Below are positions 4,014 through 43,294 of a stretch of 64,000 nt of DNA, in pieces. The notes under the pieces were generated by a model. It saw only the letters and a program-made list of their open reading frames with translations. It was not told the origin of the DNA and made no database searches. Origin of the DNA: a virus. Lineage: Duplodnaviria > Heunggongvirae > Uroviricota > Caudoviricetes. The position numbers and the translations under genes were made by a program. Numbering within the stretch: the stretch's first letter is position 1; each line of letters opens with the position of its first letter. Location of the stretch: IMG/VR virus record IMGVR_UViG_3300028648_000132; one strand, written 5' to 3'.

Positions 4014-5416
4014 TAGACCGGCATGACCTCGACGTAAAGCTGGGCGTTGGCCTTGTCGAACAGGTAGGCACCGGCCAGGCCATCGTTGTAGAGGTTGACG
4101 TAGACGGTTCCCTGGTTGCCGGTGTGGTTGGGCGGCACCAGGGCGTAGGTGTTGTCCGGCGTGATGGCCATGGTGGGGTCGGACGGTGTCGACGCGTGCG
4201 GCGACATGTGCGCCCACTGGGACGTGTTACCGAAGCCGCGGGCAATGAGTTGGCCGGAGGTGGGGTGACCCAGTCGGACCTCGCAGCCGATGATGAGCGG
4301 GTCCTGGTCCAGCTCCACACCGGTCGCCTTGATCTTGCCGAACACAATCGGCTTCCACGGGAATGGTTGCGCAGGAATGGCAAAGGACCCGATGGGTGCC
4401 CGGGTGGAGAAGCCCTGGAAGTTGGTGAACGCGGCCTCGGGCACGGTGAACGGCCTGGGCAGGATCGATCCAATGGACATGGGCCGCCACTTACCGGATG
4501 CCCCGATGTTCTCGTCGAAGCCCAGGACCTGGAGGTGCTGCGGCGGTGTGGACATGTCGACGTCCGGGGCCTGCCCGAGGCTGGCGGCAGGACCTTGCGG
4601 GCCGCGCGGCACCTTCAAGTACAGGCGGCAGGACGGCGCGTACGGGGAGCCGGTCTGGTGAACGTATGAGTCCTGGGCGCCCTCTGGTGGGAGAAGCTCA
4701 ACGCTCCAACTGATCTGAGGCACCGGCCCCGGCGGGCCTTCCGATCCCATCATCAGGATGCGGTACTCGGTGCCGAACCAGATGTAGGCGCGAGACCCGA
4801 TGAGGTTGGTGACGCCCTCCTGCTCTGTGGTCACGACCACGGACGGGCTGGTGCCGCCGGTGGGTGTACCGGTCATCTGCGGCTGCCCGATGCCTGCTTT
4901 GGAACCGGCGAAGGTCACGGTGTATGGGCCGCCGGGGTTACCGACAACCTCGACGTCGCCAGTCGAGACATTGGGCAGAGCAACCAGTGCGTCCTCGAAG
5001 GCCTGGGCGGTGGCGTTACCGGCGATAGATGCGGTCGGCTGGCCGTCGTACGCGAGGGTGAAGGAGGTGGGGCCACCGTTGAGCGTCACCGTCTGTACCT
5101 CGTTGACGGTGGCGTAGTGGTTCATGATCCAGTACTTGCCGATGTCCTCGTCGATGTCCTGGAGGTTGGTCGGCAGGTCCTCCGGGTCGTCGATCAAGGA
5201 CTTCTGGAGGCGTAGCGCGAAGGCGTTGGTACCGGCCGGACCCTGCGGCCCCATGAGAGCGGGAACCACCAAAGTCGCCTGATCGCCTTGGATTTCCATG
5301 GTGACCGCGTACTGGTCCGGTGTCGCACCGTCGGACACCACGGCATAGATGTGGGTGTTGGTCAGCAGCGACTTGAGGTACACCATCAGGCCGATGGGTG
5401 GTACCGGTGCAGTCAT
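4013..5416 (-). CDS. minor tail protein with a short collagen-like G-x-y stretch
   Basis: 467 aa. Strong AAGGAGGA RBS upstream of the ATG at 5416. Contains the motif MGPQGPAGTNAF. Located between other minor tail proteins. Confidence 0.75.
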   Translation of the reverse strand: MTAPVPPIGLMVYLKSLLTNTHIYAVVSDGATPDQYAVTMEIQGDQATLVVPALMGPQGPAGTNAFALRLQKSLIDDPEDLPTNLQDIDEDIGKYWIMNHYATVNEVQTVTLNGGPTSFTLAYDGQPTASIAGNATAQAFEDALVALPNVSTGDVEVVGNPGGPYTVTFAGSKAGIGQPQMTGTPTGGTSPSVVVTTEQEGVTNLIGSRAYIWFGTEYRILMMGSEGPPGPVPQISWSVELLPPEGAQDSYVHQTGSPYAPSCRLYLKVPRGPQGPAASLGQAPDVDMSTPPQHLQVLGFDENIGASGKWRPMSIGSILPRPFTVPEAAFTNFQGFSTRAPIGSFAIPAQPFPWKPIVFGKIKATGVELDQDPLIIGCEVRLGHPTSGQLIARGFGNTSQWAHMSPHASTPSDPTMAITPDNTYALVPPNHTGNQGTVYVNLYNDGLAGAYLFDKANAQLYVEVMPV

Positions 5417-33963: not shown

Positions 33964-34194
33964 TTACCTGGTGACGTGTTGGGCGGTTGGGGTGCGGCCG
34001 TCGAGAATTTTCTGGATCAGGCCCGGGCTGCACGTCACCGCTGCGGCCAGCGTGGCGTAGGTCCACTTCTCTCGTTCGGTGGTCCACAGCTCGCGAACTA
34101 GCCGGTCCCGTTCGTACCGGTGTTGTTCGCCGACGCGGGAGGCATCACGCTGCAACCGGTGATGCTCCCGCGCCTGCTGTGCCCTTGGGTCCAC
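33964..34194 (-). CDS. small putative DNA-binding protein
   Basis: 76 aa with an HTH-like stretch (KWTYATLAAAVTCSPGLIQKIL), immediately downstream of the Ro60-like gene. Confidence 0.4.
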   Translation of the reverse strand: MDPRAQQAREHHRLQRDASRVGEQHRYERDRLVRELWTTEREKWTYATLAAAVTCSPGLIQKILDGRTPTAQHVTR

Positions 34195-34200
34195 GCGTTC

Positions 34201-35916
34201 CTACAGTCCGGCCGAGAAGTCCGAGATCAACTGCGGGACAGCCGAGTCGAAACCAGACACGTCGAGCTGGCCGGGGTCGGCGGGGTCGGCGATGGTGAAG
34301 CGGGTTGCCGTCATGCCGACAACGATCAGGCGGGCGTTGATGCCCATCTTGTTGCGGTAGTCGCGGAGCGCCTGGTGCGGGTGGACGTCGCCGAACCAGG
34401 TCTCGTTGTCGGTGATGACCACGAACGTGTCGAACTCGCGCTTGGACTGCTGCGCCCACAGCATCGGGAGTGCGCAGTCTGTGGCGCCGAAGCTGAGTCC
34501 GGCGGTGTACCGGCACACGTCGTCGAGGCGACGGCGCGGTGTGATGTCCAGCGGGGTGAGTAGGTGCTGGGACCGGTAGCCGTAGCCCGAGCGCGCGGCC
34601 TGTCGGCCGTCGGTGAAGCCGACGACTTCGTGGTCCGGCTCGACGTTGGCGGTGACGAGCGCGAGCGCGGCTGCGGCCTCGCGGCATGTCAGCGGCATAC
34701 CCGAGATCGCGGCGCCCATGGAGCCGGACACGTCCAGCGCCAGCAGGGTGCGCATGCCCGACGGCTCCACCGCGCCGTAGGCGTTGTAGAACGCAGCGTC
34801 CAGGGCATCCACGACCTTGCGTTCCGGCGTCCAGGTGGAGTCGCCGCGCGCCGAACGCCCGGACGCATAGGTGCGCTGTGCGATCAGGACGTTGACCGGG
34901 TGGACGCGGCCCTTTCGTAGACGGTCGGCGTCCTGGAGCTGAGCAACGACACGATCCAGATATTCACCATGCAGGACCCCATGCCGGGTCAGCCGCGGCA
35001 GTTGGCGCATCAAAGCCGTCTGCGGCAGACCATGCTCAATCAGCGCTTCCCACACAGCCGTGAAGTTGAGCGCGACGTCTGGCAACGCTTCCCAGGGAAG
35101 GCCGTTGCCACGTCGAATGATGCTCACCCATTCCTTGGGTTGGGTGGCGCGCTGGGCGTCCTCGAAGTCCTCGATGATCGCCAGGGGGTGGTCGACCGCC
35201 AGATCGACATTCGGCAGCTTGGGCCGGGAGGCGTTGCGCTCCCCTGCCTTCAACTGCTCGGCGGTGAGGGGCTGAACCTTGCCGATGTAGTCGTTCAGGC
35301 CCTTGCCGACTGCCCAGTTGAAGGCGAGGCGGCGGGCCGGGTCCGCCGTGGCGGGGCCGGACAGGCGTAGGAGGTCCCGGTGCATCCAGCCTTCGCGCTG
35401 CCGGTACTTGACCAGCTGGTAGGCGAGACGGTCGACGGGCTTGTCGAGGTACCAGCCGCCGACGGCGCGCTGCATGGCGCGGCCCCACCCGCGGAACTGC
35501 TCCATGTACTTGACGAACGTGTACAGCTGGGTGCCGGTGCGGGCGACCGTGGGCAGGGCTGCCGCGGCGGCGCGGCGGCCGTCGACGTCCTCTGCTGCTG
35601 CGGCGATAGCGAGGGCGAACAGGGCCGGGTTCTGTCGGGGCGCGCGTCCGGCCACCGATACCTCGACGATGTGCTGGACGAGGTGGACCGGGTCGGCCGC
35701 TGCTGCGCGGAACACCACCGCCGCGGTGTCCTTAGTCAGGTCGGCGGCGTTGGTGTAGTAGGTGCCGCCGTCGGTGCCGAGGGTGAGGAAGCGGTGCAGC
35801 AGCGTCTCGTCGTCGATGGTGAAGGTGTAGCCACCGGCGGAGTTCTTCACCTGCCGGGGGTCCGCCTGCTGCGACTGCGGCGTCTTACGGGTTCCGATAG
35901 TGGTGAGAACGTCCAC
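34201..35916 (-). CDS. rsr: Ro60/Rsr-like ribonucleoprotein (TROVE domain plus C-terminal vWA domain)
   Basis: 571 aa. C-terminal vWA domain with the MIDAS motif LALDVSGSMGAA, and a long helical TROVE-like N-terminal region. GTG start with an AAGGAGA RBS. Immediately adjacent to tRNA-like ncRNA modules, the arrangement described for rsr/Y RNA loci. Confidence 0.8.
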   Translation of the reverse strand: MDVLTTIGTRKTPQSQQADPRQVKNSAGGYTFTIDDETLLHRFLTLGTDGGTYYTNAADLTKDTAAVVFRAAAADPVHLVQHIVEVSVAGRAPRQNPALFALAIAAAAEDVDGRRAAAAALPTVARTGTQLYTFVKYMEQFRGWGRAMQRAVGGWYLDKPVDRLAYQLVKYRQREGWMHRDLLRLSGPATADPARRLAFNWAVGKGLNDYIGKVQPLTAEQLKAGERNASRPKLPNVDLAVDHPLAIIEDFEDAQRATQPKEWVSIIRRGNGLPWEALPDVALNFTAVWEALIEHGLPQTALMRQLPRLTRHGVLHGEYLDRVVAQLQDADRLRKGRVHPVNVLIAQRTYASGRSARGDSTWTPERKVVDALDAAFYNAYGAVEPSGMRTLLALDVSGSMGAAISGMPLTCREAAAALALVTANVEPDHEVVGFTDGRQAARSGYGYRSQHLLTPLDITPRRRLDDVCRYTAGLSFGATDCALPMLWAQQSKREFDTFVVITDNETWFGDVHPHQALRDYRNKMGINARLIVVGMTATRFTIADPADPGQLDVSGFDSAVPQLISDFSAGL

Positions 35917-35947
35917 CGTGCATCTCCTTGGTAGGGGTGCGGGCGGC

Positions 35948-36030
35948 GCGAACGTGTGTGGGGCTGCCGGGGTTTGTCATCCATGTGAGGGAGGGGTTAA
36001 CCGACTGCGATCCTGCTCGTGCCACCCGTG
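35948..36030 (-). ncRNA. degenerate Y-RNA-like stem (module 0), without a tRNA-like domain
   Basis: Carries the conserved 5'-strand motif variant AGGATCGCAGTCGGTTAAC and a 3'-strand CACACACGUUCG that pair over a short internal loop. Lies between rsr and module 1. Confidence 0.3.
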
Positions 36031-36048
36031 AGGGGCTATTGGGCGGGT

Positions 36049-36168
36049 GATGTGAACGTGTGTGTGCTGACCGGGATTTCGCTTTTACACCCGCACTAGG
36101 TGCGGGCGACAGGGATTGAACCTGCATTACCAATTGAGTGATAACCGACCGAGCGTCCTGTTCACATC
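36049..36168 (-). ncRNA. Y-RNA-like (YrlA-like) ncRNA module 1 with a tRNA-like domain
   Basis: 9-bp closing helix GAUGUGAAC / GUUCACAUC. Conserved motif GUGAACAGGACGCUCGGUCGGUUAUC, a D-loop-like CAAUUGGUAAUG, T-arm GCAGG-UUCAAUC-CCUGU, and a closed acceptor-like hairpin CCCGCAC-CUA-GUGCGGG. Confidence 0.5.
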
Positions 36169-36217
36169 GGGTTGTCTGTCGTGCGCGTAGGTGGTGTGGG
36201 CGTGTGGGGTGCCGACC

Positions 36218-36332
36218 GGCGTATGTGGACAATTGCCTCTACCAATTGGGCTACACCCCGCGAGCGAGGTGGTGGGGCTCGAACCCACACCTGACTGTTT
36301 TGGTAACCGACCTGCGTCCTGTCCACACCGCC
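36218..36332 (-). ncRNA. Y-RNA-like ncRNA module 2 (permuted tRNA-like)
   Basis: Conserved motif, then T-arm GUGGG-UUCGAGC-CCCAC, an acceptor-like hairpin CACCUCG/CGGGGUG closed by a short loop, then UA plus a D-arm-like GCCCAAUUGGUAGAGGC. Closing helix GGCGGUGUGGAC / GUCCACAUACGCC. Confidence 0.5.
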
Positions 36333-36363
36333 TGCGCGCGTGCGTCTGCTGGTGTCTTGAGGT

Positions 36364-36497
36364 GGTGTGAGCGTGTGGGTGTCGTCCGGGTTTTAGCGCT
36401 CTAGGCCGCTGAGCTACAACCACTTTCGTGGCTGGCGGGATTCGAACCCGCGTCTCTCTCATGAAAGGAGATAACCGAACGAAGTCCTGTTCACACC
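36364..36497 (-). ncRNA. Y-RNA-like ncRNA module 3 (permuted tRNA-like; best preserved)
   Basis: Conserved motif, an anticodon-like hairpin UCUCC-UUUCAUG-AGAGA, T-arm GCGGG-UUCGAAU-CCCGC, acceptor 3' strand CAGCCAC, a GAAA loop, acceptor 5' strand GUGGUUG, then UA and a canonical D-arm GCUC-AGCGGCCUA-GAGC. Closing helix GGUGUGAAC / GCUCACACC. Confidence 0.55.
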
Positions 36498-36510
36498 GTG
36501 CTACGTATGG

Positions 36511-36665
36511 AGTTGTGTTGGGTGATGGGGCGAACGTGTGTGTGCTGACCGGGTTTAAGCGCTCTACCAACTGAGCTACAGCCGGGGGTTGGCTGGCGGG
36601 ACTCGAACCCGCGACCTCTCCATTAGCAAGTGGTAACCGATCTGCGTCCTGCTCGCACCATCTGG
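36511..36665 (-). ncRNA. Y-RNA-like ncRNA module 4 (permuted tRNA-like)
   Basis: Conserved motif, T-arm GCGGG-UUCGAGU-CCCGC, an acceptor-like hairpin CAGCC-AACCCCC-GGCUG, then UA and a canonical D-arm GCUC-AGUUGGUA-GAGC. Closing helix GAUGGUGCGAGC / GUUCGCCCCAUC. Confidence 0.5.
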
Positions 36666-36687
36666 TGTTTATGTTGTGGTTTGGGGG

Positions 36688-36808
36688 CGACGTGAACGTG
36701 GTTGGCGCTGGACGGGTTTGGCTCCATTTCCCCGCTTGGCTCGGGGCGTTCTAACTTGAACTACGGGGCGTGGCCCCGAGATAACCGACCTGCATCCTGT
36801 TCACGTCG
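36688..36808 (-). ncRNA. Y-RNA-like ncRNA module 5 (divergent internal hairpins)
   Basis: Perfect 10-bp closing helix CGACGUGAAC / GUUCACGUCG. Carries the conserved motif, but internally has GC hairpins (CUCGGGGC...GCCCCGAG) instead of a clear T/D pair. Confidence 0.4.
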
Positions 36809-36835
36809 TCCGTTGTTTTGTTGTCTGAAAACGAA

Positions 36836-36853
36836 GCTATACCGCGGTATAGC
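36836..36853. promoter_or_regulatory. perfect 18-bp palindrome GCTATACCGCGGTATAGC between the secreted-protein gene and the ncRNA array
   Basis: A hairpin/operator candidate containing the AGCTATAC core. It is followed on the minus strand by a U-rich stretch (UAUAGCUUCGUUUUCAG), so it could act as a terminator for the upstream gene and/or as a promoter/operator for the array. Confidence 0.4.
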
Positions 36854-36907
36854 GGTGCGGCAACAGGATTCCGGGGTGGCTGTATAGCCGCTCGGTAGCC
36901 GCGACCA

Positions 36908-37246
36908 TCACTTTCCGGCGCCAGCGCCTCCGCTCGCCGAGGACCCACCGCTACCTGCGGACCCGCTACCAGCGCTGTTGCCTCCACTTTCACCCGCGCC
37001 TGGACTTGCCGGACCTGTAGGTGGATGGTGTTGGCCCTCAGGGCATTCCGGGTCCTCTGGGGGTTTGTATCCGCCGCCACCTGCTGGGGTGAAGGGTGCG
37101 GGTCGGGCACCCAGGCATGTCTTGGCGTCTGTCGCGGCGTACAGGCAACGCTCTGGGAATGCGGAGGCCGTTGTAGTTGGGAGTGCCGTGAGGGCGGCGA
37201 TGGCGGTAGCAATGAAGGCAATGCGTTTTGCACTAAGGCTTTTCAT
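36908..37246 (-). CDS. small secreted protein (signal peptide, Gly/Ser/Pro-rich)
   Basis: Start at MKSLSAKRIAFIATAIAALTALPTTTASA, a predicted signal peptide. 112 aa. The upstream 111 codons of the track ORF are artefact. Sits next to a divergent promoter region. Confidence 0.55.
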   Translation of the reverse strand: MKSLSAKRIAFIATAIAALTALPTTTASAFPERCLYAATDAKTCLGARPAPFTPAGGGGYKPPEDPECPEGQHHPPTGPASPGAGESGGNSAGSGSAGSGGSSASGGAGAGK

Positions 37247-37256
37247 GACTCGAAAC

Positions 37257-37320
37257 GTATATAGAGCTATACACATAAGCAAGGCTGTTACGGCTTGTTC
37301 TTTCGTATAGTGAGCTATAC
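37257..37320. promoter_or_regulatory. divergent promoter/operator region with two GTATA(T/G)-N4-CTATAC palindromes
   Basis: GTATATAGAGCTATAC at 37257-37272 and GTATAGTGAGCTATAC at 37305-37320, with the shared 10-mer GAGCTATACA. Both lie between the minus-strand secreted-protein gene and the plus-strand island. TATAGT/TATAGC are -10-like. Confidence 0.4.
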
Positions 37321-41944: not shown

Positions 41945-42372
41945 GAATTGCGGCACGTGATGCAGGTGCGGAGGACGTACCTGCGGTGCGGGAACTCGGC
42001 GGTTAGCGGGCTGTCCCACCACGTCTCGTATTCGGGTATCTCGACCTGGTGCGCTGCCTGGGTGTCGCATTGGGTGCAGGTGTCGAAGGCATGGAATTGC
42101 AGAGCGATTCGGTATGGGTGGGTCTTGCGTGCGAACCAGTGGCCGTCGTTGTCGCGGGCTTTCGGCGGCCATACGGCGATCTCCACTATGGTGCCGGTGA
42201 CGTTGAAGGGCAGGTCCAGGATGTCGCCGGGGTGCAGGGTGTCGGTCAGCCTGGCGCGGACCAAGTCGTCGTGTGCGAGGTTCAGGCGGAAGGGTATTGG
42301 CCACTTCTTACCGTTGCGGTGCAACGTAACTGGGGTGGTCGGATCGTCCAGACGAACGGTCTGATAGGTCAC
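41920..42372 (-). CDS. hypothetical protein with a C-terminal zinc ribbon
   Basis: GTG at 42372 overlaps the upstream stop (GTGA). Confidence 0.45.
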   Translation of the reverse strand: MTYQTVRLDDPTTPVTLHRNGKKWPIPFRLNLAHDDLVRARLTDTLHPGDILDLPFNVTGTIVEIAVWPPKARDNDGHWFARKTHPYRIALQFHAFDTCTQCDTQAAHQVEIPEYETWWDSPLTAEFPHRRYVLRTCITCRNSWEQDEAQ

Positions 42373-42980
42373 TGCTGCCTCCAAGTCTGTCCACACTCCG
42401 TGCACTCCCGGGTAACCGAGCCGGGGTCCTGGGTGCATGGCTGTATGTAGTGGGTGTTGATGAATCCGCAACGGGGGCAGGCGCATTGTGCGGCGAACTC
42501 AGATACGCGGTAGGTGTCGGGTCGGGTCGGTTTGGCTATCTCGGGTGCGCCTAGGACCTTGTATCCCTGGCCGAGCCAGAGGTATGCAACCTCGCTCGTG
42601 CGGTCCCACCACCACTTGCCGATGTGGTCGGTGGCGGCGTTGACCATGCTGGGCAACTCGTCGTAGGAGTCGACCTCGCCGAACATGTACAGGGGCTGGC
42701 CAGTACCGGAGCGGGCAAGTAGTGCACGCCGTAGCGGGTTCGGTTCGACTCCGACCCAGCGCTGGCCGCCGATGTTCACGTCGCCGACGATGGTGTGTGC
42801 GGCGATGCTGCCGCGGCTGGCCTGCACCGTGATGGTCCCGCCAGCCTGGATCGCGACGGAATTGTCTCCGGAGATCTGGATCTGGTTGCCACGTCGGCGC
42901 AGTCCGAGCGTCAACAGGTATGCGGTGAATCCGCCACTAGCCGCAAGGAATAGCGCCATGGCCTCAAGAAGCACGCTCAC
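42369..42980 (-). CDS. membrane-anchored protein with a C-terminal zinc ribbon
   Basis: GTG at 42980 overlaps the upstream stop. N-terminal TM helix VLLEAMALFLAASGGFTAYLLTLGL. C-terminal CACPRCG...CTECG. Confidence 0.45.
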   Translation of the reverse strand: MSVLLEAMALFLAASGGFTAYLLTLGLRRRGNQIQISGDNSVAIQAGGTITVQASRGSIAAHTIVGDVNIGGQRWVGVEPNPLRRALLARSGTGQPLYMFGEVDSYDELPSMVNAATDHIGKWWWDRTSEVAYLWLGQGYKVLGAPEIAKPTRPDTYRVSEFAAQCACPRCGFINTHYIQPCTQDPGSVTRECTECGQTWRQQ

Positions 42981-43294
42981 GACGCCAACCCCCGCGGCCG
43001 GTTGTTGATGCGCGCTAGCTCCATGCCCTGTCGCTCCAGTTCCTCCCGCTCTGCCGCGCGCAGGTACGCGCTCTGCAACTGGAGGACGACGTGCCGGATG
43101 GCGTCCTGCTGGGTGTCGACGCAGGCGATGGGGTGCTGCTCCCACGGCCGCCATATGCACCATTGCGGCGACGCGGCGAGCACGTCGTCAGGTCGCGCGG
43201 ACCAGTCGCGACGCTGCCAGGGTGTCTGTTCACCGTCCTGTGCTTTGCGTATGCGCCAACGCTTTAGCTGCTCCGGAGTCCACTCACGGTGCAT
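42977..43294 (-). CDS. hypothetical protein
   Basis: Start at MHREWTPEQLKRW. The upstream Ser/Thr/Arg-rich 114 codons are artefact. Confidence 0.4.
   Translation of the reverse strand: MHREWTPEQLKRWRIRKAQDGEQTPWQRRDWSARPDDVLAASPQWCIWRPWEQHPIACVDTQQDAIRHVVLQLQSAYLRAAEREELERQGMELARINNRPRGLAS

Follow-up and report, generated by a model that had tools for sequence, protein, structure and literature searches.

A probable tandem array of six Y RNA genes sharing a predicted Ro-docking stem in the rsr leader of a Mycobacterium abscessus-type prophage

The 64-kb stretch of caudoviral DNA analyzed here (IMG/VR record IMGVR_UViG_3300028648_000132; hereafter the window) carries, directly upstream of rsr, a gene for a Ro60 ortholog, a 27-28-nt motif that recurs in six consecutive modules. 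Y RNAs serve the Ro60 ring as adaptors, and to our knowledge the partners recruited by their variable modules are still largely unknown in bacteria. Our analysis makes it very probable that the locus encodes six YrlA/YrlB-family Y RNAs in tandem, on the minus strand in the rsr leader of a Cluster MabK-type M. abscessus prophage, and that the motif is the 5' strand of a predicted Ro-docking stem. On this reading, each RNA closes on itself through an outer helix, P1, an asymmetric loop (5' A-G-G-A-Y, 3' C-A-C-A-C) and an inner helix, P2 (..GGUCGG / CCGGUC..), followed by UUAYC. The motif, as the 5' strand of this bipartite stem, would dock the prophage Ro ring, and the variable interiors would act as effector modules, being full tRNA mimics in modules 2-4, partial ones in modules 1 and 5, and without tRNA mimicry in module 6. 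Most probably, a single transcript would start from a conserved promoter ~20 nt upstream of module 1 and run through the six modules into rsr, and cuts between the modules would release separate stem-closed RNAs. Each RNA would then bind Rsr through its stem, while its interior would gate the Ro cavity and/or tether a partner of its own, e.g., polynucleotide phosphorylase (PNPase) or tRNA-handling enzymes. By analogy with characterized Y RNAs, we infer Rsr binding by each of the six RNAs, as well as the effectors.

With the spacer relaxed from a literal N5 to N4-7 for counts in the window, TAACCGA-N4-7-TCCTG occurs seven times, compared with 0.00 expected from 100 shuffles, and six of these copies lie in the array, which bears out the sixfold repetition reported in the original prediction. 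The six copies span 35996-36812, with the RNA strand being the minus strand, and their G(A/G/T)TAACCGA elements start at 35996, 36140, 36302, 36470, 36632 and 36780; the positions first given were off by 0-2 nt, and the copy described as degenerate at ~36003 exists but starts ~7 nt away, at 35996. Two details of the proposed consensus do not hold: the N5 spacer is N4 in four copies, the literal pattern fitting the copy at 36140 alone even with 3 mismatches, and the motif does not end in CACA throughout, the last copy ending in CACG. Read on the minus strand, each copy consists of the P1 5' strand, A-G-G-A-Y-N, the P2 5' strand ending in UCGG, and then UUAYC, and the 3' partner in each module reads CCGG..(P2 3')-CACACAC-GYYCRC..(P1 3'). 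This complementary strand was predicted for every copy and is present in 6/6 modules. The distance of 100-140 nt assigned to it is approximate, since whole modules measure 135-153 nt (95 nt for module 6) and UUAYC is separated from the start of the 3' strand by 64-82 nt in modules 1-5 but by 25 nt in module 6. The contrast between variable interiors and conserved strands was correctly described, as was the presence of the helix without tRNA-like cargo in the rsr-proximal "module 0" (here module 6, 35936-36030), whose interior is 25 nt.

With the Rsr protein as query, 47 homologous loci were found in genomes and viral contigs, and 3 phage records brought the set to 50. In alignment A1, comprising 18 diverse minimal modules aligned with MAFFT blind to structure, 83.2% of the P1/P2 cells are paired, compared with 32-40% after sliding the 3' partners 1-3 columns out of register, and 12 pairs change on both sides (e.g., columns 11-103, CG:10/UA:8, and 10-104, GC:10/AU:6/CG:1/UA:1). 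One P1 position (columns 15/99) shows a conserved non-canonical A.C. RNAalifold, with no structure supplied, returns the same two helices and leaves the A.C position unpaired. In alignment A2 (101 distinct modules), 82.6% of the cells are paired versus 30-41% when slid, 18/22 pairs change on both sides, and 0/500 shuffles reach the observed value on any measure; because A2 was fitted to a covariance model of the closing stem (R1), which favors structure, and its sequences are related, A1 and RNAalifold carry the main weight. U-G pairs are frequent in P2 (86/101 at one position in A2), which identifies the minus strand as the transcribed one. P1 and P2 are real helices of each module, and both covary. 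The ends of the RNA pair into a long stem, as in Y RNAs, with P1 and P2 found in 6/6 modules (9-13 of 14 standard pairs in P1 and 6-8 of 8 in P2). The exact sequences also pair when folded, minimum free energy (MFE) structures giving P1 in 6/6 modules and P2 in 4/6.

R1, which contains no M. smegmatis sequence, finds exactly six matches in the window, all on the minus strand and with none else up to E = 10; a check for a generic repeat thus reveals no further structural copies elsewhere in the 64 kb. Across the 50 loci plus the window, R1 gives 140 matches, all 5' of rsr on the rsr strand, with 2-7 modules per locus. The seventh motif match (42413-42431 on the plus strand as the pattern is written, the same strand as the array copies) was rejected as an array-type site. 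It lies inside a coding region (...QDPGSVT...), within a 264-aa minus-strand open reading frame (ORF; 42369-43163), reaches ~0 bits when scored by the structural model (filters off), and lacks both a 3' partner and any Y RNA-like structure, and we therefore regard it as a chance match.

That the closing helix is the Rsr recognition element, as originally proposed, stands for the helix through covariation and RNAalifold, and is supported for recognition through homology of the stem to Rsr-bound M. smegmatis RNAs. In that species, YrlA (~147 nt) and YrlB are encoded upstream of rsr, derive from a common precursor, and are both recovered by co-immunoprecipitation of Rsr (PMC4201824). On the M. 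smegmatis locus (L052), R1 matches 2194-2339 (146 nt, 61 bits) and 2344-2467 (54.6 bits), and the probe targets published for YrlA and YrlB fall within these matches. Between them, the two RNAs have 19 identical 5'-strand nucleotides (GCCGGACGUCGAUCGGUUA) and a near-identical 3' strand in common, and nothing else; the stem, as the sole region common to two validated Rsr ligands, thus provides the strongest available argument that it is the Rsr docking site. The YrlA 5' probe target differs by 2-3 mismatches from the M2-type module of close relatives. For the YrlB probe target, gapless scanning gave no match at up to 7 mismatches, the YrlB link resting on R1. Together with the adjacent Ro60 ortholog and the published contact motif at the same position in the most distant relatives, this homology gives binding of the prophage modules to Rsr via the stem strong but indirect support.

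Conservation within the stem is concentrated at particular positions. On the 5' side, the near-invariant columns are G14 and C17 (P1), G19 G20 A21 (5' loop), and U31 C32 G33 G34 U35 U36 A37 C39 (P2 plus UUAYC), and on the 3' strand they are C188 C189 G190, C203 A204 C205 G206, C209 and C211. The most invariant nucleotides are unpaired or at helix ends (NGGA, UCGG-UUAYC, CACG). In the published animal Ro60 structure, the protein mainly contacts the 5' strand. Given both, the "recognition helix" is better read as a recognition stem interrupted by an internal loop. Outside the prophage clade of the window, the 3' strand GCCCRC hardly varies, which hints at a sequence-specific role beyond pairing. 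The A.C opposition in P1 (GAGC/GCCC) is kept in most homologs; window modules 1, 2, 5 and 6 have A-U there, and the adjacent pair is A-U (modules 1 and 5) or G-U (modules 2 and 6), giving GAAC/GUUC or GAGC/GUUC.

A comparison with the Ro-binding consensus of bacterial Y RNAs, suggested in the original prediction, finds the position conserved and the literal sequence unmatched: GNCGAAN0-1G occurs in 0/6 modules, and the homologous position reads [G/A]CAGGA[C/U]N. In the relatives furthest from the window, a Bixzunavirus phage and Micropruina, the sequence is GC/CGAAGG (GCCGAAGG; slash, P1/loop junction), i.e., GNCGAAN0-1G itself, mycobacterial loci including M. smegmatis read GC/CGGAYG, and all modules of all loci with an Rsr 74% or more identical to that of the window read C/AGGA. 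The loop variant follows the Rsr lineage, not the module type, which fits either co-evolution with the protein or expansion of the array after the change. To judge from these alignments, the window motif is a clade-specific variant of the published Ro-contact sequence. The UUAYC pentanucleotide, a reported conserved feature of both vertebrate Y RNAs and the stem-bulge RNAs of nematodes, stands at the 5' end of the interior in the window modules, with module 6 reading UUAAC. In the Bixzunavirus, Mycobacterium phage Delylah (L003), R1 matches minus-strand 4587-4674 and 4860-4951 (31.1 and 33.7 bits). Both matches immediately precede the Ro gene and fall within genes 234 and 233, annotated as "hypothetical protein"; these genes may be spurious coding-sequence calls over minimal Y RNAs with canonical GCCGAAGG.

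Bacterial Y RNAs are modular, the end-paired stem carrying the Ro60 site and the remainder forming an effector module that is tRNA-like in YrlA. Modules 2-4 have such a tRNA-like domain, its arms running V, T, acceptor-like hairpin and D. Module 5, without the D arm, and module 1, without the T arm, have it in part, and the YrlB-like module 6 lacks it altogether. In modules 3 and 4 the acceptor-like stem is 7 bp long and capped by a tetraloop; M. smegmatis YrlA is an RNase P substrate by virtue of this feature (PMC4201824).

Several observations weigh against the Y RNA array: the fit of A2 to R1, already mentioned; the failure of P2 to form when modules 4 and 5 are folded alone by MFE; Rfam YrlA scores that all fall below the gathering score of 69 (best 43, module 2); the departure from literal GNCGAAN0-1G in 6/6 modules, with A for C at position 3 and G for A at position 5; and a -10-like hexamer, TATAGC, that lacks the usual final T and belongs to an element resembling a hairpin with a T-rich tail behind it. 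With Rfam YrlA, the validated YrlA of M. smegmatis reaches 45.1 bits, through its tRNA-like core alone, so the 69-bit threshold does not separate members from non-members in this clade, and the Rfam YrlA model does not capture the stem of the clade to which the window belongs. The validated M. smegmatis RNAs deviate from GNCGAAN0-1G too (GCCGGACG).

Among the alternatives, the one that fares best is compatible with the Y RNA reading and plausible for module 6, although we consider it unlikely: the array, or at least module 6, would be a cis-acting leader through which Rsr feeds back on the translation or stability of its own mRNA. The geometry invites it, since P1 of module 6 ends at 35940, ~10 nt before the Shine-Dalgarno sequence of rsr (AAGGAG, 35929-35924), minimal modules homologous to module 6 adjoin rsr in nearly all loci, and there is no terminator between array and rsr. 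However, the rsr-proximal YrlB of M. smegmatis accumulates as a separate Rsr-bound RNA, and five of the six modules lie far from the ribosome-binding site.

It is more improbable still that the closing stems are mainly processing signals, e.g., for RNase III, freeing the tRNA-like interiors, with Rsr binding secondary or absent. Such a role would suit the module gaps of 8-18 nt, the long terminal helices, and the derivation of M. smegmatis YrlA and YrlB from one precursor. The most invariant positions are nevertheless unpaired or sequence-specific (G19 G20 A21, UCGG-UUAYC, C203 A204 C205 G206), which duplex cutting does not need; RNAs bound by Ro, from those of bacteria to those of animals, conserve a GNCGAA-type loop and UUAYC; and module 6, like many minimal homologs, has no cargo to free.

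A decayed phage tRNA cluster or generic dispersed repeat, unlinked to Rsr, is extremely improbable: it could draw on the Rfam tRNA match at 36427-36585 (minus strand; 36.9 bits, gathering score 29) and on a tRNA-Thr annotated inside the array of a relative, but the former spans two modules across a 100-nt gap, ARAGORN calls no tRNA in the array, the arm order T, acceptor, D is that of YrlA and not that of a tRNA, and the stem covaries, sits solely upstream of rsr in 50 loci and has no other copies in the window. We rejected the Rfam match as a register artefact of tandem YrlA units because it combines the module 2 D arm with the module 3 T arm over the 100-nt "intron". It was alone in the Rfam scan at gathering threshold, which gave no YrlA match in the array, and no canonical cloverleaf with normal arm order was found there. 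A cross-module tRNA match agrees with a published proposal in which dimeric tRNA transcripts gave rise to YrlA. The tRNA annotated in the relative (prophiGD43A-5 gene 51, "tRNA-Thr(tgt)"; L001 8590-8668) is the 5' half of a Y RNA module. ARAGORN reproduces this call, taking the V-arm loop CUUGUAA as the anticodon loop; the window counterpart, the 5' half of module 2 (~36588-36666), has an 8-nt loop and is not called. The central base of the V-arm loop varies among homologs, with UGU in L001, UCU in M. smegmatis YrlA, and UUU in L044 and L045.

As an extension of the Y RNA reading, one can picture a private Ro system in which one Rsr ring uses 6-7 interchangeable adaptor RNAs, with full, partial and non-tRNA-like interiors, to reach different host partners, the clade-wide change CCGGA to CAGGA, common to all module types, being a co-evolved code that separates prophage ribonucleoproteins from host Rsr and Y RNA, and the tRNA-mimic modules perhaps decoying tRNA-targeting nucleases when phage and host are in conflict; we hold this speculative and rather unlikely as a whole.

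For transcription of the proposed Y RNA array, conservation upstream of the first module points to a promoter-like element at 36836-36863 (minus strand), with TTGCCG at 36863-36858, 16 nt, and TATAGC at 36841-36836. Diverged loci share TTGNNN-16/17 nt-TACAGT at this place, and counterparts are found in L004-L006, L021, L035-L037, L039, L042-L045, L049 and L052. The element is overlapped by an inverted repeat CTATACCGCGGTATAG (36852-36837; CTATAC-N4-GTATAG in the window). Phage-type loci have such a repeat (CTGTAC-N4-GTACAG) over the spacer and -10-like hexamer, its arms covarying; the repeat may be an operator. A generic scan labelled the hairpin 36853-36836 terminator-like, a simple reading that is doubtful because the site is conserved as a -35/-10-like pair with a covarying repeat where the T-tail is absent. 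The missing final T of TATAGC and the look of hairpin and T-rich tail nonetheless leave the transcription start uncertain, and a promoter with operator is the more likely reading of 36836-36863, over a terminator, though an unsettled one. No terminator-like site was found on the minus strand within the array or between the array and rsr. By analogy with M. smegmatis, and in keeping with the lack of internal terminators, we infer that the array is co-transcribed and processed into discrete RNAs.

The six predicted modules, all on the minus strand, run in transcriptional order toward rsr. Module 1 (Y RNA-like, 36680-36814) is supported by R1 (40.0 bits, E 1.7e-6) and a single-sequence fold, and has no Rfam YrlA match. 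Its 5' strand (36780-36812) comprises P1 CGGACGACGUGAAC, loop AGGAUG, P2 CAGGUCGG and UUAUC, its 3' strand (36684-36715) P2 CCGUCCAG, loop CGCCAACCAC and P1 GUUCACGUCGCCCC, with 12/14 pairs in P1 and 6/8 in P2. The 64-nt interior (36716-36779) forms three hairpins, one acceptor-like, one D-arm-like (GUUC-AAGUUA-GAAC) and one extra. Module 2 (YrlA-type, 36518-36666; R1 47.6 bits) matches Rfam YrlA, RF02553, over the full model. The 5' strand is P1 CAGAUGGUGCGAGC, loop AGGACG, P2 CAGAUCGG and UUACC (36632-36664) and the 3' strand P2 CCGGUCAG, loop CACACACAC and P1 GUUCGCCCCAUCAC (36522-36552; P1 11/14, P2 7/8). Its interior of 79 nt (36553-36631) holds a V arm, which is the closest counterpart to that of M. 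smegmatis YrlA, a T arm, a 5-bp acceptor-like hairpin and a D arm. Module 3 (YrlA-type, 36355-36505; R1 45.7 bits, Rfam YrlA 28.9 bits over the T-AS-D core) has P1 ..GGUGUGAAC, loop AGGACU, P2 UCGUUCGG and UUAUC on its 5' strand (36470-36503), and P2 CCGGACGA, loop CACCCACAC and P1 GCUCACACCACCUC on its 3' strand (36359-36389; P1 10/14, P2 8/8). The interior (80 nt, 36390-36469) contains a V arm, a T arm, the 7-bp acceptor-like stem closed by GAAA, and a D arm.

Module 4 (YrlA-type, 36184-36336; R1 43.4 bits, Rfam YrlA 28.5 bits) has a 5' strand of P1 CAGGCGGUGUGGAC, loop AGGACG, P2 CAGGUCGG and UUACC (36302-36334) and a 3' strand of P2 CCGGUCGG, loop CACCCCACAC and P1 GCCCACACCACCUA (36188-36219; P1 11/14, P2 7/8), enclosing 82 nt (36220-36301) with a T arm, the 7-bp acceptor-like stem with a CUCG loop, and a D arm. 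Module 5 (partly tRNA-like, 36040-36175) is supported by R1 (40.5 bits), its fold and an orthologous module in locus L035. P1 ..GAUGUGAAC, loop AGGACG, P2 CUCGGUCGG and UUAUC form the 5' strand (36140-36173), P2 CCGGUCAG, loop CACACACAC and P1 GUUCACAUCACCCG the 3' strand (36044-36074), with 9/14 pairs in P1 (9 contiguous) and 8/8 in P2; the 65-nt interior (36075-36139) retains a V arm, a T arm (CAGG-UUCAAUC-CCUG) and an 8-bp acceptor-like hairpin and has lost the D arm. Module 6 (35936-36030), the minimal one adjoining rsr, scores 68.6 bits with R1, a value to be read knowing that its sequence was in the R1 seed. Its 5' strand (35996-36028) is P1 CGGGUGGCACGAGC, loop AGGAUC, P2 GCAGUCGG and UUAAC, its 3' strand (35940-35970) P2 CCGGCAGC, loop CCCACACAC and P1 GUUCGCGCCGCCCG (P1 13/14, P2 7/8), and its short interior (35971-35995), with no tRNA-like arm, holds the position of M. 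smegmatis YrlB.

The source locus is a mycobacterial prophage type, window positions 34000-37300 being 94% identical to the Mycobacterium abscessus prophages prophiGD43A-5 and prophiT37-1. A published survey assigns both to Cluster MabK and mentions no Ro and no RNA array. rsr (34201-35916, minus strand, GTG start) encodes a 571-aa Ro60 ortholog with Pfam TROVE (1.2e-46) and vWA_Ro60 (5.6e-64) domains, and its counterparts in the two prophages are annotated "Ro-like RNA binding protein". The array occupies ~900 nt directly upstream, where relatives have no annotated protein gene, and ends ~20 nt from rsr on the same, minus strand. Directly upstream of the array lies an unannotated ORF (36908-37246, minus strand, 112 aa) with a signal-peptide-like N-terminus (MKSLSAKRIAFIATAIAALTALPTTTASA), a Gly/Ser-rich tail and no Pfam match; in relatives, a BrnT-like toxin/antitoxin pair follows beyond its counterpart on the opposite strand.

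Array size varies with relatedness. Chromosomal-type Mycobacterium loci and M. smegmatis have 2 modules, loci with Rsr ~75% identical have 4-5, and prophages with 96-97% identical Rsr have 5-7, a variation among such close relatives that suggests gain and loss by recombination between the conserved stems. In L031, L032 and L034 (~2238-2396), a seventh module stands between the counterparts of modules 2 and 3, with P1 GACC/AGGACG and an 87-nt tRNA-like interior; in L028 (~2444-2575), module 3 is apparently shortened.

The locus presents six natural variants on one docking stem beside one Ro protein, in prophages of a clinically important pathogen, and the natural loop variants CAGGA, CCGGA and CGAAG, tracking Ro lineage, offer a ready test of Ro recognition. 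R1 detects mycobacterial and phage Y RNAs, including minimal YrlB-like ones, that Rfam YrlA scores below threshold. The analysis also flags probable annotation errors in public records, namely the prophiGD43A-5 "tRNA-Thr" and, in a Bixzunavirus, the small genes ahead of the Ro gene that are labelled "hypothetical protein".

The feature falls within a known Y RNA family, and the motif as such adds no new biology. The literature searched makes no mention of a Y RNA array of 6-7 modules in MabK-type prophages, the supplementary tables of a 2014 survey (phage YrlAs) lying outside that search; as far as this literature shows, what is apparently new is the array of that size in these prophages, the clade-wide CAGGA loop, and the conservation of both stem strands. 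Published work finds the 5' strand alone conserved across bacteria, unlike the clade of the window. Closest in organization are YrlA and YrlB of M. smegmatis, which likewise have a bipartite closing stem, lie upstream of rsr on the rsr strand, and place the tRNA-like module(s) first and the minimal module beside rsr; YrlA has a V arm nearly as in module 2 and a 7-bp acceptor-like stem as in modules 3 and 4. They differ in having two modules, compared with six in the window and seven in some relatives, in a C/CGGA loop where every window module has C/AGGA, and in the conserved A.C mismatch where the window P1 often has A-U. YrlB has a T arm, whereas module 6 has none and modules 1 and 5 have incomplete tRNA-like domains, and the M. 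smegmatis locus is chromosomal, whereas that of the window is in a prophage. The layout of Rfam YrlA is that of the window, with a 6-bp terminal helix, a 5-nt 5' loop opposite a longer 3' loop, a second helix of 7-9 bp and YUAY, followed by V, T, acceptor and D arms whose T and D arm sequences match; its stem sequence is so unlike that of the window that cmscan mis-registers or skips the stems.

More distant systems share less. In Salmonella, the Y RNAs lie downstream of rsr in the RtcR-controlled rsr-yrlBA-rtcBA operon, in contrast to their upstream position here, and the annotation of the closest prophage shows no rtcB and no rtcR near the locus. Animal Y RNAs are separate Pol III genes with non-tRNA-like loops, in contrast to the predicted polycistronic array. 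The Rfam Y_RNA and sbRNA models match no window module, although M. smegmatis YrlB weakly matches RF01656 via its 5' strand (24 bits, E 0.011; gathering 38). Thermus phage phiLo, with two RNAs compared with six and a distant Ro protein, is the phage counterpart: its Ro60 is phage-encoded, the Y RNA-like genes Yrl1 and Yrl2 lie directly upstream and are likened, from the published description, in their stem-bulge-stem form with a CGAA-type motif, and both RNA binding and a complex with host PNPase have been shown (PMC12135203).

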